Shown here: positions 55,038 to 63,645 of the stretch, piece after piece | How positions within the stretch are numbered: position 1 is the stretch's first letter | Layout: every line of letters starts with the position of its first letter | From: Candidatus Sericytochromatia bacterium | Lineage (GTDB): Bacteria; Cyanobacteriota; Sericytochromatia; S15B-MN24; JAQBPE01 | Assembly: GCA_035284745.1 (NCBI GenBank) | Contig: JAYKIL010000021.1 | Location: forward strand, 9,197 to 73,196 | Direction of reading: 5' to 3' | Length of the DNA: 64,000 bases | Made by a program: the position numbers and the translations under genes | Notes under the pieces: generated by a model | What the model was told of the DNA's origin: nothing | What the model saw: only the letters and a program-made list of their open reading frames with translations | Database searches by the model: none

Positions 55038-55232
55038 GGCGATGCCCTCCGTGTGCGGATGCACAAATTTAGAACCGGATTATAACACGCGGCAACGTCT
55101 CCACCCCGCGGGCTGTCGACGCAATCCATCCGTAGCGGGTTACAGGCATTGAGCCCGAAGAGGGCGGCTTCGCACTGTGGCAGAAATCGGGTACCCTGGG
55201 ACCACCGTGTTTCAAATTCAAAAGAGGGATTC

Positions 55233-55421
55233 ATGCTCGGTTTGATGACTTTTCTGATGTTTTTCACGACGCTGTTTCAGGCGTGGCAAGCCCACAAACA
55301 ATGGCAAGCCTACCAGAGGGGCGAAGTGACGCGCGGCAGGGCTGTCAATCAAATCACAAACGTGGTCCTGATGGCAGCTGGCACAGTCGGTCTATTTCTG
55401 GTGGGACGACTGATCGGCTAA
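55233..55421 (+). CDS. Small (62 aa) two-TM membrane protein, hypothetical
   Basis: ATG 55233 preceded by AAAGAGGGA RBS. Hydrophobic segments MLGLMTFLMFFTTLF and VVLMAAGTVGLFLVG. Confidence 0.35.
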   Translation: MLGLMTFLMFFTTLFQAWQAHKQWQAYQRGEVTRGRAVNQITNVVLMAAGTVGLFLVGRLIG

Positions 55422-58015: not shown

Positions 58016-59590
58016 GTGAATGCGAAGGAAATGCCGAAAGGAAGGATTCCTATGGATCTGGCCAGCTCTACTTCGGTCAATCGGATCAATCTTGAAAAAC
58101 TTGAGAGCCGCGGCAACAGTTCTTTGCTGCGGGAGGCGGCGATGTCGCAGCCGCCTCAGAACGTTGCAGCAACGGCGCCGCCTGCGAACTCGAGTGTCCA
58201 AAAGACACCGCTCATTGCGCCTGCCAACGAGTCGTCCAACTCGGGATTTGCGCGCGATTTGGCGCAGACGCTGAGCGATTTGCGTGAGCGATTGGGAGAG
58301 TCAAGTCTGGCATCTGGCCTTCAATTCAGCGCTGCGAGTGCCTCCCAATTGAGTAGCACGGCTCTCAGACAAGTGGAGCTGTCCGACCAAGGTGCGCCCA
58401 ATGAGAGCGACGCGACTTTCTCGCCCTCCGCGCCGGCATCAGTGAACGACCTAGCATCGCAAAGCTTCGACTTCGCAGATGCATTGGACTTCACCGATGA
58501 CAGTTCCTTCGTTCCGCGGGAACCCGTGACGGTCCAAAACAATGCGGCTCCCAGCGCCTCAAATTCGCAACCCGAGGAAAACGAGCAGCAAGAGCCAAAC
58601 CTCGGCGATGCAACGCTCAGCACTCTGTCGACTTCTTTGAACTTACAAAGCGCGGCGGGTCGATTCCAAATTGACGTGAACGGCCAGACGCTCAACTTCC
58701 GCGCTGATCAGACCCTCAATGATGTGTTAACTGGGCTGTCAGCCCCTGGAACCGGTGTCAGGGCATCGTTGGACCCAAGGGAACGGCGCATTGACATCGA
58801 AAGCACGAACGGTCGGCCGCTTTCAATCAACGATCGCGAAGGCAATCTTTCAAGCGGCCTAGGGATCGAAGTCACACCCTCTGAGAATACAAATGCCTCT
58901 TTGAGCCGCGACCTGCAAGACTTTGCACAAGGGCTTAACCGCGCGATCACGACCCTGGAACGGGCCGATTCAACGCCCCAATCGAGAGAGGCGGAGCAGG
59001 TTTTGAATGAACTAAAATCCGCGCTGAACGGTTTGTTTGCCCCCTCGCGAAACGGCCAGGTCAATGGCCTGGGGGACCTTGGTTTTTCCCGCGAAAACGG
59101 CGAAGTGCAGTTTGACGAAAGCCGTCTCAATTCGCTGGTACAGAGCAATCCAGACGAAGTCAATCGTGTGGCAGGTTCTTTGGCGGAAAATGCTGCTCCC
59201 ATCCTGCGCTCGGGCGAACGGGTCGCCCGCGAGATAGAAACGTCCGTGGCCGAGGCAAAGGCCAGCACGCAAGAGGTAAAGATATTTGGCGAAATTCAGC
59301 GCCTGCAAGTGCGTCAGCAGACCTTAGAATTGGACCGGGTCAGTATTGACAGGCTTCGTAACCGGGTGTCTGAGCAGGGTGAATTTCTTGCTCGCGTGGC
59401 GGAGAATTTAGAAGACCGCCTCTCCGGTACCGTGCCGAAAGTCGTCCAAGAGACCAAAGATTTCGCCCGAGACGTGGCGGCATCTCGGCCTCGACGTCAA
59501 TCGGCCATCGCTTTTCGTCCCCCTGATCCGCCACTGGGTAACGTGGGGGCTCCGAATTCCTCCTTCGTGCTCGCGCGGGATCGGGCCTAG
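58016..59590 (+). CDS. Ser/Ala/Asn-rich protein with FliD (flagellar cap / Flagellin_IN)-like central and C-terminal regions. No flagellar genes nearby
   Basis: RFQIDVNGQTLNFRADQTLNDVLTGLSAPGTGVRASLDPRERRIDIESTNG resembles the Flagellin_IN/FliD repeat (INGvtI.v...tL.dlv.aIN...gvtAs). C-terminus FDESRLNSLVQSNPDEVNRVAGSL resembles FliD_C (LD..KL..AL..NPD.V..LF). Confidence 0.35.
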   Translation: MNAKEMPKGRIPMDLASSTSVNRINLEKLESRGNSSLLREAAMSQPPQNVAATAPPANSSVQKTPLIAPANESSNSGFARDLAQTLSDLRERLGESSLASGLQFSAASASQLSSTALRQVELSDQGAPNESDATFSPSAPASVNDLASQSFDFADALDFTDDSSFVPREPVTVQNNAAPSASNSQPEENEQQEPNLGDATLSTLSTSLNLQSAAGRFQIDVNGQTLNFRADQTLNDVLTGLSAPGTGVRASLDPRERRIDIESTNGRPLSINDREGNLSSGLGIEVTPSENTNASLSRDLQDFAQGLNRAITTLERADSTPQSREAEQVLNELKSALNGLFAPSRNGQVNGLGDLGFSRENGEVQFDESRLNSLVQSNPDEVNRVAGSLAENAAPILRSGERVAREIETSVAEAKASTQEVKIFGEIQRLQVRQQTLELDRVSIDRLRNRVSEQGEFLARVAENLEDRLSGTVPKVVQETKDFARDVAASRPRRQSAIAFRPPDPPLGNVGAPNSSFVLARDRA

Positions 59591-59606: not shown

Positions 59607-59762
59607 ATGGAACCACGCGCGGTAGAATCCCACCCTCCGTCAAAAAAGCCCTATCAGAAACCGAAAATTGAGTCTCACAGGGTCTTTGAAGTGTCGCTCG
59701 CGTGCATCAAAGTGCCCGGCTCGCCGGCTTGCGCATTTAACGTGGCGCGAGCGCGCAGTTGA
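59607..59762 (+). CDS. Candidate 51-aa precursor-like small ORF (MEPRAVESHPPSKKPYQKPKIESHRVFEVSLACIKVPGSPACAFNVARARS)
   Basis: ATG at 59607. Its stop TGA (59760-59762) overlaps the TTG start (59759) of the HprK-like gene. Y-x-x-P-x-I leader-like motif, C-terminal Ser, no acidic residue in the last 23 aa. Confidence 0.3.
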   Translation: MEPRAVESHPPSKKPYQKPKIESHRVFEVSLACIKVPGSPACAFNVARARS

Positions 59763-60604
59763 GTGCCGTGCCCTGGCAGCCAGTGCTCGGCTTGGCCGGC
59801 TTCAACGTCGCCTTAGATCTGCCCTCCCATTGCTGGTGGGAGTCCCTCGTTGACAGACTGGGGCATTTTGCCGTCAACGAAACTCCAGATGCCTTCCTGT
59901 GTGTTCAGATCACGGCGCCAATGCCGGAAACAGACGATCGCGAGCCCCGTGTTTTTCAAGACGCCCGCGGATTGCACCTCAAACACGACCAATACTTTGG
60001 CACCGTTTGCCATCCGGACGAAGCCGTTCTTCAGGTGGCTACAGCCCCCAATACGCTGCCTGATGCGACCTTCCCGATGGCGGTGGATGGCCTCCTGCGC
60101 CTCTTGCTCGCCCAATTGCTGCAACGAACAGGAAGTCTGATGCTGCACGCGGCGGGATTGATCGGGCCACAGCGAAAGGGCTACATTTTTTTTGGGCCAT
60201 CGGGGAGCGGAAAAACAACGATGTGCAAACTTTCAGATCCACAGTTTCCGGTCTTGTGCGACGAGCTCATTGCGATTCGTTTGGATCGAGAAGTACCCAC
60301 TCTGTACAGCACGCCATTCGCTGGCGCGTGGGGAAAAAGTTTTCCGGGGCATTGCGCCCTTGCGGGCTTGTATCGACTGCGCCATGCGCCCCAAACCCAG
60401 GTTGAGGACCTTTCCCCCAGTCGCGCCATCCGTGAAATTTTAGAATCTATGGTTTATTACGATCAGAGCCCAACAGGTTTGTCGCAATCCCTCGAGATTG
60501 CAGCACACTTGGCACAGGCAGTTCCTGTTCGAGAGCTCGCATTCCTTCCGGAGGCCGCCGTATGGCAGACCATCGCTCATCAGAACCAACCCGCCATTGG
60601 GTGA
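59759..60604 (+). CDS. HPr kinase C-terminal-domain-like P-loop serine kinase (RiPP/lasso-associated kinase family)
   Basis: GYIFFGPSGSGKTTMCKL P-loop followed by VLCDELIAI (compare HprK LVADD). ~281 aa, no HprK N-domain. Confidence 0.7.
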   Translation: MSAVPWQPVLGLAGFNVALDLPSHCWWESLVDRLGHFAVNETPDAFLCVQITAPMPETDDREPRVFQDARGLHLKHDQYFGTVCHPDEAVLQVATAPNTLPDATFPMAVDGLLRLLLAQLLQRTGSLMLHAAGLIGPQRKGYIFFGPSGSGKTTMCKLSDPQFPVLCDELIAIRLDREVPTLYSTPFAGAWGKSFPGHCALAGLYRLRHAPQTQVEDLSPSRAIREILESMVYYDQSPTGLSQSLEIAAHLAQAVPVRELAFLPEAAVWQTIAHQNQPAIG

Positions 60605-60885
60605 GACTTAACCCGCGAATTGCTGCTCGGACCATCCACGGTGAAACGCTCATCTTGACGCCCCATGACAGCATTCTCCATACGCTCAACGAGGTCGGAA
60701 CAAGAGTTTGGAGCTTATTGGCTCAGGCAGAATCGCCTGAAGCCATCGCGTTCACCCTGAGTCAAGAGTATGAAGTGGAGGTGGAGGAAGCCCGTGAAGA
60801 CGTCTTCTGTTTACTTCGCACCCTCAAAGAAAAGGGCATCATTGAAACTTCGACATCAGAATTGGGAACGCAACAACCCGATTAA
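60601..60885 (+). CDS. PqqD-family protein (RiPP recognition element, RRE)
   Basis: VRLNPRIAARTIHGETLILTPHDSILHTLNEVGTRVWSLL...EAIAFTLSQEYEVEVEEAREDVFCLLRTLKEKGII fits PqqD. GTG 60601 overlaps the kinase stop (GTGA); the track start 60562 is also possible. Confidence 0.7.
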   Translation: MRLNPRIAARTIHGETLILTPHDSILHTLNEVGTRVWSLLAQAESPEAIAFTLSQEYEVEVEEAREDVFCLLRTLKEKGIIETSTSELGTQQPD

Positions 60886-61664: not shown

Positions 61665-62237
61665 ATGCGCAAGGTTCTTGGCGTGGTGTTGATGGGATTG
61701 ATGCAGGCGGGTTGCGGCTGGTACACGAACATTCCGGCCTCTATTCTTGTGGTCTCGGTCAAACCAGGAAAAATCACCTACGAACCCCCCAATACGGCAG
61801 GGGTTCGCGAGATAAAGACGGAAAACCCCGTCGTCCGGCTTCAGGGCGAGCCAGGCAGCATTGGCGCGAATTTTTCAATTGCCACCGTGCAGTATACACG
61901 GAGCAACGGAACGGACATCGCTGCGGATAAACTTCCGCCCATGAGGATCGGTCTCAGTTTTAGGGTTGAATCATCGACCTATCCTGCACAACCCGGAACG
62001 GGCCCCATCGACCAGTCACAAGTGGGGCGCATTATTGACGCAGGCCGCACCGAGATAGAATTGCCCGTTCTCACTCGACTGGTTGAACAATACGGCCAAG
62101 ACAACAATCCGCCAGAGGGCAATGCACCCCTGATCACTGCCAATGTTATTTTTCAGGGGGCTGACGACGCCAACTTCCCGATCAGCCTGTCTGCCTTTGT
62201 TCCTATCTACTTTAGCGGCAATCCGGGATCACGATGA
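61665..62237 (+). CDS. Hypothetical lipoprotein
   Basis: Signal/lipobox LMGLMQAGCGW. Confidence 0.4.
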   Translation: MRKVLGVVLMGLMQAGCGWYTNIPASILVVSVKPGKITYEPPNTAGVREIKTENPVVRLQGEPGSIGANFSIATVQYTRSNGTDIAADKLPPMRIGLSFRVESSTYPAQPGTGPIDQSQVGRIIDAGRTEIELPVLTRLVEQYGQDNNPPEGNAPLITANVIFQGADDANFPISLSAFVPIYFSGNPGSR

Positions 62238-62243
62238 GAATCG

Positions 62244-62423
62244 CACTGCGGCGGATGATTCAGGAAGAGTCAGGCTCTGCCGCGGTAGAGTACGCCTTGC
62301 TGACCGGTGCTTTTGTCCTCTGTCTTTTTGGAGCCGCGGCCGCCCTAAAAAATGCGCAAGCAGCCGCTTTTCGCGCTCAACACGAAGGTCTCAAGCGCTG
62401 GCGAGCCCCTTGAATCGCGCTCC
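62244..62423 (+). CDS. Divergent Flp/Fap-family pilin (59 aa), absent from the ORF track
   Basis: MRIALRRMIQEESGSAAVEYALLTGAFVLCLFGAAAAL... carries the Flp motif G-x-x-x-VEYAL plus a hydrophobic helix. Confidence 0.55.
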
Positions 62424-62565
62424 CTTATCCTAAAATTAACTCAAAATTTACATCAGGACAAACTCAGCACCGCAAGGTTGCCCAAGGTCGACGCGATAAG
62501 GTTTTTAGGGAAGTTCTCAACGCGCTGAATCTCTCAGCCTGCGCCATTTAAAAAAGGAGCCGCCG

Positions 62566-62757
62566 ATGCTGATGCTTAAGAAACTGTGGAATGATGAAGA
62601 CGGTCAATCTCTGGTGGAATATGGCCTGATCTTGGGTTTGGTCTCCGTGGCCTTGATTGCCGTCCTTGGAACGATGCGCACCGAACTCGGAAAGATTTTT
62701 GATGCCGTCGCCAAGTCGCTGAAAACGGCTGCATCCTCCGTCAAGTCCGCCAAGTAA
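62566..62757 (+). CDS. flp: Flp family type IVb pilin
   Basis: MLMLKKLWNDEDGQSLVEYGLILGLVSVALIAVLGTM... canonical Flp prepilin. Strong RBS AAAAGGAG. Confidence 0.75.
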   Translation: MLMLKKLWNDEDGQSLVEYGLILGLVSVALIAVLGTMRTELGKIFDAVAKSLKTAASSVKSAK

Positions 62758-62781
62758 CAAGACGACACAGGAGGCTCTCCG

Positions 62782-62964
62782 ATGTGGCACCGATTGTGGC
62801 ACGATGAAGACGGTCAAAGTCTGGTCGAATACGGCCTCATTTTGGGCTTGGTCTCAGTTGCGCTCATTGCGGTGCTGGGAACGATGAGAGCAAACCTGGT
62901 GAACATTTTCATGGAGGTATCTTCCCAGTTGCGCAAGGGTTCAGCCGCGGTCAAAACAAATTAG
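62782..62964 (+). CDS. flp: Flp family type IVb pilin (paralog)
   Basis: MWHRLWHDEDGQSLVEYGLILGLVSVALIAVLGTM... The first 40 aa are nearly identical to the previous pilin. Confidence 0.75.
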   Translation: MWHRLWHDEDGQSLVEYGLILGLVSVALIAVLGTMRANLVNIFMEVSSQLRKGSAAVKTN

Positions 62965-63102
62965 CGAATCACTTGTGGAAAAGGACCAGCCGGCGGCTGG
63001 TCCTTTCTTGTCTGTATGTCCCACGGTTTGGGTGTACGCACGGGCGGGAAGATAATGGTCAGCGCCTTTTCATTTCTCTCCCCTCATCCCCCGAAAGAGA
63101 CA

Positions 63103-63645
63103 ATGGCACCTGCCTGGCAGTTCGGACTGGTCGGAATCCTTATCGTTGCTTTGGTGACCGACCTTCAGAGCCGTAAAATCTACAACTGGCTTACCTTTCC
63201 AGCCATCCTTCTCGGGCTGGCTTTGGGGGCATTGACAGGAGGAGTGGCGGGCCTCCAGGCAGCCGGCATTGGCCTTTTGGTTGGCAGCGCGGTCTTTCTC
63301 CTCGGATTCATGCTCGGAGCCATGGGCGCGGGCGATGTAAAACTGATGGCGGCGGTCGGTGCGTGGCTGGGATGGCCCCACGCCTTGGCCGCTGTCCTCT
63401 ATGTCACGGTCATTGGGGGTTTCGTTTCCCTGGGGGCCGCCGCTGTGAATGGCTCCTTGATACAGCTATTTCGTAACATTTACTGGTTCCTCGTCGGACT
63501 CATCCTGCCGGGCGGCAAAGCCCAGGCGGCCATAGCCCGCAGTGCGGCGCCCCCGATTCCATACGGCATCTCGATTGCACTCGGCGGCATCCTGGCGTTG
63601 TTTTTTCCAGAACCCCAAACCCTGCTCGCCTTGATGAGGAGGTGA
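63103..63645 (+). CDS. cpaA: Prepilin peptidase, A24 family (CpaA/TadV)
   Basis: Polytopic; catalytic Asp regions VTDLQSRKIYNW and GAGDVKLMAAVGAWLG. Confidence 0.75.
   Translation: MAPAWQFGLVGILIVALVTDLQSRKIYNWLTFPAILLGLALGALTGGVAGLQAAGIGLLVGSAVFLLGFMLGAMGAGDVKLMAAVGAWLGWPHALAAVLYVTVIGGFVSLGAAAVNGSLIQLFRNIYWFLVGLILPGGKAQAAIARSAAPPIPYGISIALGGILALFFPEPQTLLALMRR

Follow-up and report, generated by a model that had tools for sequence, protein, structure and literature searches.

A conserved small peptide gene beside an ScmC-family kinase-like protein and a PqqD-type recognition element in Sericytochromatia: a candidate reduced RiPP-like module

Organization and conservation of the locus

We analysed 64,000 nt of the genome of a Candidatus Sericytochromatia bacterium (GCA_035284745.1, contig JAYKIL010000021.1, positions 9,197-73,196, forward strand), hereafter the window, in which three tightly packed genes encode a 51-aa precursor-like peptide, a P-loop protein of the ScmC family and a PqqD-family recognition element of the type associated with peptides that are made by the ribosome and modified after translation (RiPPs). 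The relevant features, in window coordinates, are the following:

58016-59590, + strand: FliD-like protein gene, a 524-aa open reading frame (ORF) of uncertain true start; upstream partner of the module
59607-59762, + strand: precursor-like peptide gene, 51 aa, with a variable N-terminus, a conserved leader and a conserved core
59652-59669, + strand: leader motif Y16-Q-K-P-K-I21 (YxxPx[LIV]), putative element bound by the RiPP recognition element (RRE)
59703-59732, + strand: core segment Cys33-x8-Cys42 (CIKVPGSPAC), with Cys33 at the predicted leader/core junction
59757-59759, + strand: codon for Ser51, the last residue of the peptide and its putative phospho-acceptor
59759-60604, + strand: ScmC-family (PF27840) kinase-like protein with the fold of phosphoenolpyruvate carboxykinase (PEPCK) and HPr kinase
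60146-60262, + strand: catalytic segment, comprising His130 (60146-60148), the P-loop G146-PSGSGKT-T154 (60194-60220) and Asp168 (60260-60262)
60562-60885, + strand: PqqD-family RRE; the start ATG 60562 gives 107 aa, the start GTG 60601 gives 94 aa

The peptide ORF runs from ATG 59607 to the TGA at 59760-59762 and its product is MEPRAVESHPPSKKPYQKPKIESHRVFEVSLACIKVPGSPACAFNVARARS. The kinase ORF begins at TTG 59759 (281 aa), with a 4-nt overlap with the peptide stop codon TGA; gene callers choose the alternative start GTG 59768 (278 aa). The PqqD start GTG 60601 and the kinase stop TGA (60602-60604) overlap as GTGA, and starts and stops within the module overlap or nearly abut throughout. Upstream, the FliD-like gene lies on the same strand as the peptide gene with a gap of 16 nt; downstream, lexA is convergent and its 3′ end overlaps that of the PqqD gene by 30 nt (60856-60885). 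No terminator-like hairpin was detected between lexA and the PqqD gene, and a promoter and terminator scan returned nothing informative. The compact arrangement described in the original prediction, made from the sequence alone (a 51-codon ORF, a P-loop protein, a GTGA-coupled PqqD, a FliD-like gene upstream and a convergent lexA), is present in all its parts.

The order FliD-like gene, peptide gene, ScmC kinase gene, PqqD gene and convergent lexA, followed by a Flp/Tad pilus locus, was found in every readable Sericytochromatia locus (n = 9), that is in the genome of the window itself (L021-L023) and in L001, L002 (identical to L008), L003, L009, L010, L024, L025 and L026, which are independent loci whose kinases are 42-75% identical to one another. 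A small ORF adjoins every kinase/PqqD pair examined in Sericytochromatia, so that the conservation on which the original prediction was to be judged is seen in all nine loci. Over the 39 conserved codons, NG86 estimates gave pS values of 0.40-0.90, near saturation, and pN values of 0.02-0.22, with a dN/dS of 0.03-0.18 wherever dS was computable. The mean pairwise identity was 80.5% for the conserved 39-aa part of the peptide, 76.6% for LexA, about 60% for PqqD, 52.9% for ScmC and 46.9% for the FliD-like protein; the peptide gene is therefore the best conserved of the module, as conserved as LexA. Given its conservation in nine loci, the low dN/dS and the saturated synonymous sites, we conclude that the 51-codon ORF is a real gene under strong purifying selection.

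When 1.84 billion representatives were searched exhaustively with HMMER, nine further cluster representatives of the peptide were identified, of 49-68 aa, all sharing the pattern Y-x-x-P-x-[VL]-x-S-x-x-V-F-E-x-S-[LM]-A-C-x8-C-...-[RK]-S. The one of these that could be placed, P0180, lies in the same operon. Gene callers called the small ORF on L001, L002, L025 and L026 and missed it on the window's own contig (L021 7319-7477, corresponding to window 59607-59762), on L003 and on L024, which indicates that this peptide family is under-annotated in public data.

The peptide, its recognition element and the kinase-like protein

Residues Y16, K18 and P19 are invariant across the peptides of Sericytochromatia, Elusimicrobiales and Planctomycetia, and the Sericytochromatia members share the lasso-type leader consensus KPYxKPx[LIV]ESHxVFE and the core pattern C-x8-C...[RK]S. 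In lasso-peptide leaders the motif YxxPxL occupies positions -17 to -12 (PMC10368454); applying this spacing to Tyr16 places the leader/core boundary at Ala32|Cys33, with Cys33 sitting 17 residues past Tyr16, and predicts a 19-aa core, CIKVPGSPACAFNVARARS. Cys33 and Cys42 are invariant in every Sericytochromatia-type peptide, and all 18 such peptides carry an [RK]-S C-terminus, so that both the leader motif and the terminal Ser to which the original prediction drew attention were recovered. The reported lack of Asp/Glu in the core was likewise borne out: none of the 18 family peptides has an acidic residue beyond E28, which makes a lasso macrolactam impossible. The residue at position -2 is Leu, not the Thr of lasso precursors.

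The PqqD-like RRE proposed from the sequence matches Pfam PqqD with an E-value of 8e-15. Two NCBIfam lasso_PqqD models were also matched, with E-values of 3e-10 (lasso_PqqD_Bac) and 3e-9, both below their cutoffs. The protein is 47% identical to the PqqD of an ScmC-PqqD-radical S-adenosylmethionine (SAM) cassette in another locus (L019), whose precursor has the same leader as the window peptide, KKPYQKPKI, joined to an unrelated core. An identical leader with a related PqqD and an unrelated core is the usual RiPP pattern, in which the leader co-evolves with the RRE; across phyla, leader and PqqD are conserved together and the cores vary. In a further locus (L014, 5579-6004) a 141-aa PqqD bears at its end, as a natural fusion, a tail resembling a precursor (KPPRILWQETVEQVAATCAFFPAQNPLCSQVPFS; ...CAFFPAQNPLCSQVPFS), directly upstream of genes for ScmC, a radical SAM/SPASM enzyme and a Transglut_core3 peptidase. 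An encoded precursor-like peptide adjoining the genes of an RRE and of a putative modifying enzyme, as seen in the nine Sericytochromatia loci, is what would be expected of a RiPP system.

The kinase ORF contains the P-loop region FFGPSGSGKTT...VLCDELIAI, which the original prediction had likened to that of the HPr-kinase C-domain. Membership of this family did not hold: no match to Pfam Hpr_kinase_C (PF07475) was obtained even at E ≤ 1, and searches of HMM libraries gave weak matches to PEPCK_ATP, ScmC (TIGR04249) and HprK_rel_A. The precomputed Pfam assignment of the protein and of all its close homologues is PF27840 (ScmC), weak or faint for some of them, including this one. Homologues are few: a single-sequence query of 5.8 billion clusters returned 16, and those with a name come from metagenome-assembled genomes of Candidatus Sericytochromatia. 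An alignment of 40 family members, with identities as low as 16%, keeps H130, G146-T154 and D168 unchanged or almost unchanged. The AlphaFold model (pLDDT 94.6, pTM 0.91) had structural matches to PEPCK and HPrK/P only, the best being PEPCK, and the family profile reaches PF07475 proteins at E-values of 1e-7 to 1e-4, some proteins matching both PF07475 and PF27840. With its fold similarity, conserved P-loop and catalytic Asp, the protein qualifies for the PEPCK/HPrK superfamily; the label "HPr-kinase-like" is right at the level of fold and superfamily, by way of ScmC, and wrong at the level of family. Identity to HPrK/P and to ATP-dependent PEPCK reaches only 10-16%; PEPCK is a much larger protein, HPrK/P has a different N-terminal domain, and the genomic context of the ScmC gene is one of peptide modification rather than carbon metabolism.

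Relationship to radical SAM/SPASM cassettes and proposed pathway

Outside Sericytochromatia, we considered more distant ScmC proteins and the peptides found in pattern scans of genome and metagenome contigs. The nearest relatives, from Actinobacteria, Chloroflexi, Elusimicrobiales and metagenomes, turned out to be ScmC-PqqD-radical SAM/SPASM cassettes and not lasso clusters, so that the kinship with paeninodin-type lasso clusters that had been proposed was not supported. A radical SAM/SPASM gene adjoins ScmC in each of the seven distinct outside loci readable far enough; in L015, where the contig is cut, there is no adjacent gene of this type in the readable part. Some cassettes have an additional gene, for a Transglut_core3 (lasso B2-like) peptidase in L004 and L014, a short S24-like peptidase in L012 and L017/L018, and an NTP_transf_5 protein in L013. 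In their precursors an [FY]E pair, mostly within V-F-E, comes after the leader KPYxKPx[IL], and there are two or three Cys residues at positions equivalent to those of the Cys residues of the window peptide, and seven of the eight distinct relatives from other phyla end in Ser (FS, TS, RS, YS, LS). These relationships suggested that the module is best seen as a radical SAM RiPP system that has lost its radical SAM enzyme; the direction of change follows from parsimony, since all readable outgroup cassettes have such an enzyme.

The missing partners were searched for at several distances. By tblastn, neither the five cassette radical SAM/SPASM proteins, nor the NTP_transf_5 protein, nor the S24 peptidase found a counterpart, either in the window or in the 13-21 kb of each of five related loci, and two cassette Transglut_core3 proteins gave nothing credible in the same sequences; Pfam made no Transglut_core3 call in any Sericytochromatia locus. 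No radical SAM gene is present in the window, within 10 kb on either side in the relatives, or within 10 kb downstream in the same genome, where a Tad pilus locus lies past the end of the window. A profile of the five cassette radical SAM/SPASM proteins, which belong to a family too broad for such a profile to single out an orthologue, returned at least 1125 matches, and none of the 120 matches listed is named Sericytochromatia. The absence of lasso enzymes noted in the original prediction extends beyond the window. Pfam scans of 20 large window ORFs returned housekeeping genes only, with no Asn_synthase (lasso cyclase) domain among them, and no cyclase was called within 10 kb in the relatives or along the 10 kb that follow the window in the genome it comes from. 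An ordinary lasso cluster close by is thereby excluded downstream of the window and in all relatives. The module itself encodes no peptidase and no exporter.

Comparison with phosphorylated lasso clusters, such as those of paeninodin (PadeK) and of Bradymonas (BsfK), showed that these clusters, like the module, combine a stand-alone PqqD-type RRE with a P-loop kinase of the HPrK/PEPCK superfamily, a YxxPx[LIV] leader motif about 17 residues before the core, and a precursor ending in Ser. In contrast to them, the module has no lasso cyclase, B2 peptidase or ABC exporter, its core offers no Asp/Glu acceptor, Leu takes the place of Thr at position -2, its kinase belongs to PF27840 (ScmC) rather than PF07475, and its core is nearly invariant in a locus that is vertically inherited among housekeeping genes. 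Among the lasso hallmarks, the module thus has the PqqD-like RRE (B1) and lacks the cyclase, B2 and the full precursor signature (Thr at -2, Asp/Glu at core positions 7-9). The second system of comparison, SynChlorMet (SCM) with its related cassettes (TIGR04248-04251; PF27840), shares with the module the pairing of an ScmC-type protein with a PqqD homologue and, in the related ScmC cassettes, the same precursor leader, the Cys residues (two or three in the cassettes) and the C-terminal Ser; unlike the SCM cassette, the module has no radical SAM/SPASM enzyme nearby. Two radical SAM proteins belong to the SCM cassette, whose precursor is not known to have been identified. The cassettes of the relatives from other phyla resemble the SynChlorMet cassette of Haft, while the window proteins score far below cutoff with the SCM equivalog models (ScmC, 17 bits against a cutoff of 125; ScmD, E 0.07). 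The module thus varies a familiar RiPP logic, the pairing of an RRE with an HPrK-superfamily kinase, and no class-defining enzyme accompanies it.

We propose that the locus is a RiPP-like module, reduced and inherited vertically, whose RRE delivers the peptide to ScmC, probably for phosphorylation of its invariant C-terminal Ser, a reading to which we assign a probability of about 0.5. The stand-alone PqqD/RRE would bind the leader of the peptide and hand the leader-bound peptide to the ScmC-family P-loop enzyme, which would use ATP to phosphorylate it, most probably on the hydroxyl of Ser51. The module would descend from the wider, uncharacterised family of ScmC-PqqD-radical SAM/SPASM cassettes, and would have lost, at least locally, the radical SAM enzyme and the peptidase; the peptide may consequently stay uncleaved. 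That the peptide gene is real, the synteny, the fold, the family ties and the lack of partner enzymes close by are shown; we infer leader binding, kinase activity, acceptor residue and peptide fate, and phosphorylation of the terminal Ser by analogy with lasso clusters, where HPrK homologues phosphorylate the C-terminal Ser of the linear precursor, in precursors that share little else between phyla (PMC8498205), and where the RRE BsfB1 accelerates phosphorylation by BsfK in the Bsf system (PMC10368454). The Ser kinase proposal thus combines this precedent with the terminal Ser of all 18 Sericytochromatia-type peptides and of most relatives from other phyla. The near-invariant core, the fixed operon among housekeeping genes and the lack of a peptidase or exporter make a conserved cellular role of the product more likely than that of a secreted antibiotic, and the module looks less like an antibiotic cluster spread by horizontal transfer than like a lineage-specific physiological system.

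Several observations weigh against this proposal. PEPCK is a better structural match of the ScmC model than HPrK, which makes another phosphoryl-transfer chemistry possible, and the literature searched contains no biochemical characterisation of an ScmC-family protein. The RiPP papers found there concern lasso peptides or unrelated RiPPs, and none of them describes ScmC-type kinases in non-lasso RiPP systems. BsfK phosphorylates Ser3 and not the C-terminal Ser, so that precedent leaves the acceptor unfixed, and one relative, L006, ends in Ala. Moreover, the invariant Cys pair suggests a further modification that the local genes leave unexplained; Cys33 and Cys42 might be joined by a disulfide, or be acted on by a radical SAM enzyme whose gene lies in another part of the genome.

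The latter possibility leads to a split pathway, in which the three genes would be the local half and a radical SAM enzyme, making a thioether or another cross-link on Cys33/Cys42, would act in trans together with a leader peptidase encoded elsewhere. The invariance of both Cys residues in Sericytochromatia and the radical SAM/SPASM gene beside all seven sufficiently readable outside ScmC loci speak for it, while the lack of any such gene across the window and the flanks searched, and a local order kept in nine loci despite their divergence, a sign of a self-sufficient unit, speak against it; we regard it as possible but rather doubtful. That ScmC is not a Ser kinase at all seems unlikely, and more so than the split pathway: it could instead carry out another ATP-dependent step, such as activation of the C-terminal carboxylate to an acyl phosphate or PEPCK-like chemistry, or serve mainly as an ATP-dependent adaptor of the RRE-peptide complex. 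The better structural match to PEPCK would fit such chemistry, yet the His...GxSGxGK[ST]...D arrangement of ScmC is the one that serves phosphoryl transfer in both HPrK/P and PEPCK. In addition, the conserved terminal residue is specifically Ser, and the only characterised RiPP-associated members of the superfamily are Ser kinases (PMC8498205, PMC10368454). Finally, the small ORF might be a product of chance or a decaying remnant and the kinase/PqqD pair the relic of a lost cluster, as the absence of class-defining enzymes and the ORF left uncalled on three contigs, its own included, might suggest. This is hardly credible and is effectively refuted by the selection analysis (dN/dS 0.03-0.18), to which the LexA-level conservation, the invariant catalytic residues and the synteny in nine loci are added.

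A more specific form of the proposed phosphorylation module, which we put forward tentatively, is that RiPP machinery has been domesticated in Sericytochromatia into a kinase-only system, whose product would be a conserved phosphopeptide, possibly left uncleaved, that has a housekeeping function connected with the FliD-like protein or with the adjacent Tad pilus. If so, it would be the first RRE-dependent peptide system with phosphorylation as its sole modification, serving physiology rather than chemical warfare. The broader proposal, if true, would establish a minimal peptide system of RRE and kinase with neither cyclase nor radical enzyme, widening what counts as a RiPP pathway. It would also supply the uncharacterised ScmC proteins of many radical SAM/SPASM cassettes with a first candidate family of precursors, together with a testable chemical role for ScmC, the phosphorylation of the terminal Ser. 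The LexA-level conservation of the peptide and the stable operon with the FliD-like gene point to a physiological function, which current annotation would have missed in this non-photosynthetic sister group of cyanobacteria.

Flanking genes and additional observations

The module occupies a fixed chromosomal position among housekeeping genes (metK-dnaB-rplI...lexA-tad). In the original prediction the FliD-like gene delimited the module; its position immediately upstream on the same strand was confirmed, but in all nine Sericytochromatia loci it lies on that strand 16-106 nt before the peptide gene, as a conserved partner and not a mere boundary, probably co-transcribed and the first gene of the operon. 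Its match to FliD_C is sub-threshold (E 3e-4 in the window; three of six orthologues matched, best E 4e-6), and one orthologue has a likewise sub-threshold Flagellin_IN match. Only the C-terminal ~330 aa are conserved, and the N-terminal half is highly variable and of low complexity. No other flagellar genes were seen among the genes called near it in related loci, and PDB searches with a profile of the protein found nothing. The downstream convergent gene encodes a true LexA (LexA_DNA_bind plus Peptidase_S24); it was considered as a stand-in for the S24-like peptidase of L012 and L017 and rejected, as it shows no similarity to it and its LexA DNA-binding domain is complete.

In the interval from lexA to the Flp pilin genes, window 61665-62237 encodes a 190-aa protein without a Pfam match that is conserved in the seven Sericytochromatia loci reaching that far (7/7) and looks like a lipoprotein by its sequence, with a lipobox-like AGCGW motif. 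This protein was also considered as a peptidase and discarded: its Transglut_core3 tblastn match is weak (E 0.007, 27% over 78 aa) and probably spurious, and its sole Cys is that of AGCGW. The Tad/Flp pilus locus follows from window 62234 to 63645, with Flp-like pilin ORFs at 62234-62413, 62566-62757 and 62782-62964 and a prepilin peptidase-like membrane protein at 63016-63645, and runs past the window end with TadE, RcpC, secretin and CpaF-like genes (L021). On the other side of the module, a small ORF at window 55149-55421, between rplI and a 209-aa gene, corresponds to a gene that is called in related loci with a length of 62 aa; it looks like a small membrane protein by its sequence, and the related genes carry no recorded family match.

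Some features of the relatives were also noted. The S24-like peptidase gene (~123 aa) comes right after the precursor gene in L012 (10126-10497) and L017 (1500-1871), and its short product is a candidate leader peptidase, distinct from the B2-like Transglut_core3 of the sister cassettes. One peptide of the family comes from Planctomycetia (…KKPYQKPRITSREIYEVNALGCAKC…KKFS). It is encoded directly after a type II/IV secretin gene (L011 9983-10144, L016 202-324) and is an apparent orphan precursor beside pilus or secretion genes, with no ScmC, PqqD or radical SAM gene in the 10 kb upstream or in the remaining 2 kb downstream. The FliD-like protein of Sericytochromatia shows no similarity to the very large proteins of surface or secreted type (Big_13, Ig-like, a 1364-aa S8 peptidase) encoded beside ScmC cassettes in several phyla, which are located as follows:

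L006, 1785-9800: very large surface-type or secreted protein beside the cassette
L012, 10532-15829: very large surface-type or secreted protein beside the cassette
L013, 8565-11687: very large surface-type or secreted protein beside the cassette
L015, 6911-11005: very large surface-type or secreted protein beside the cassette

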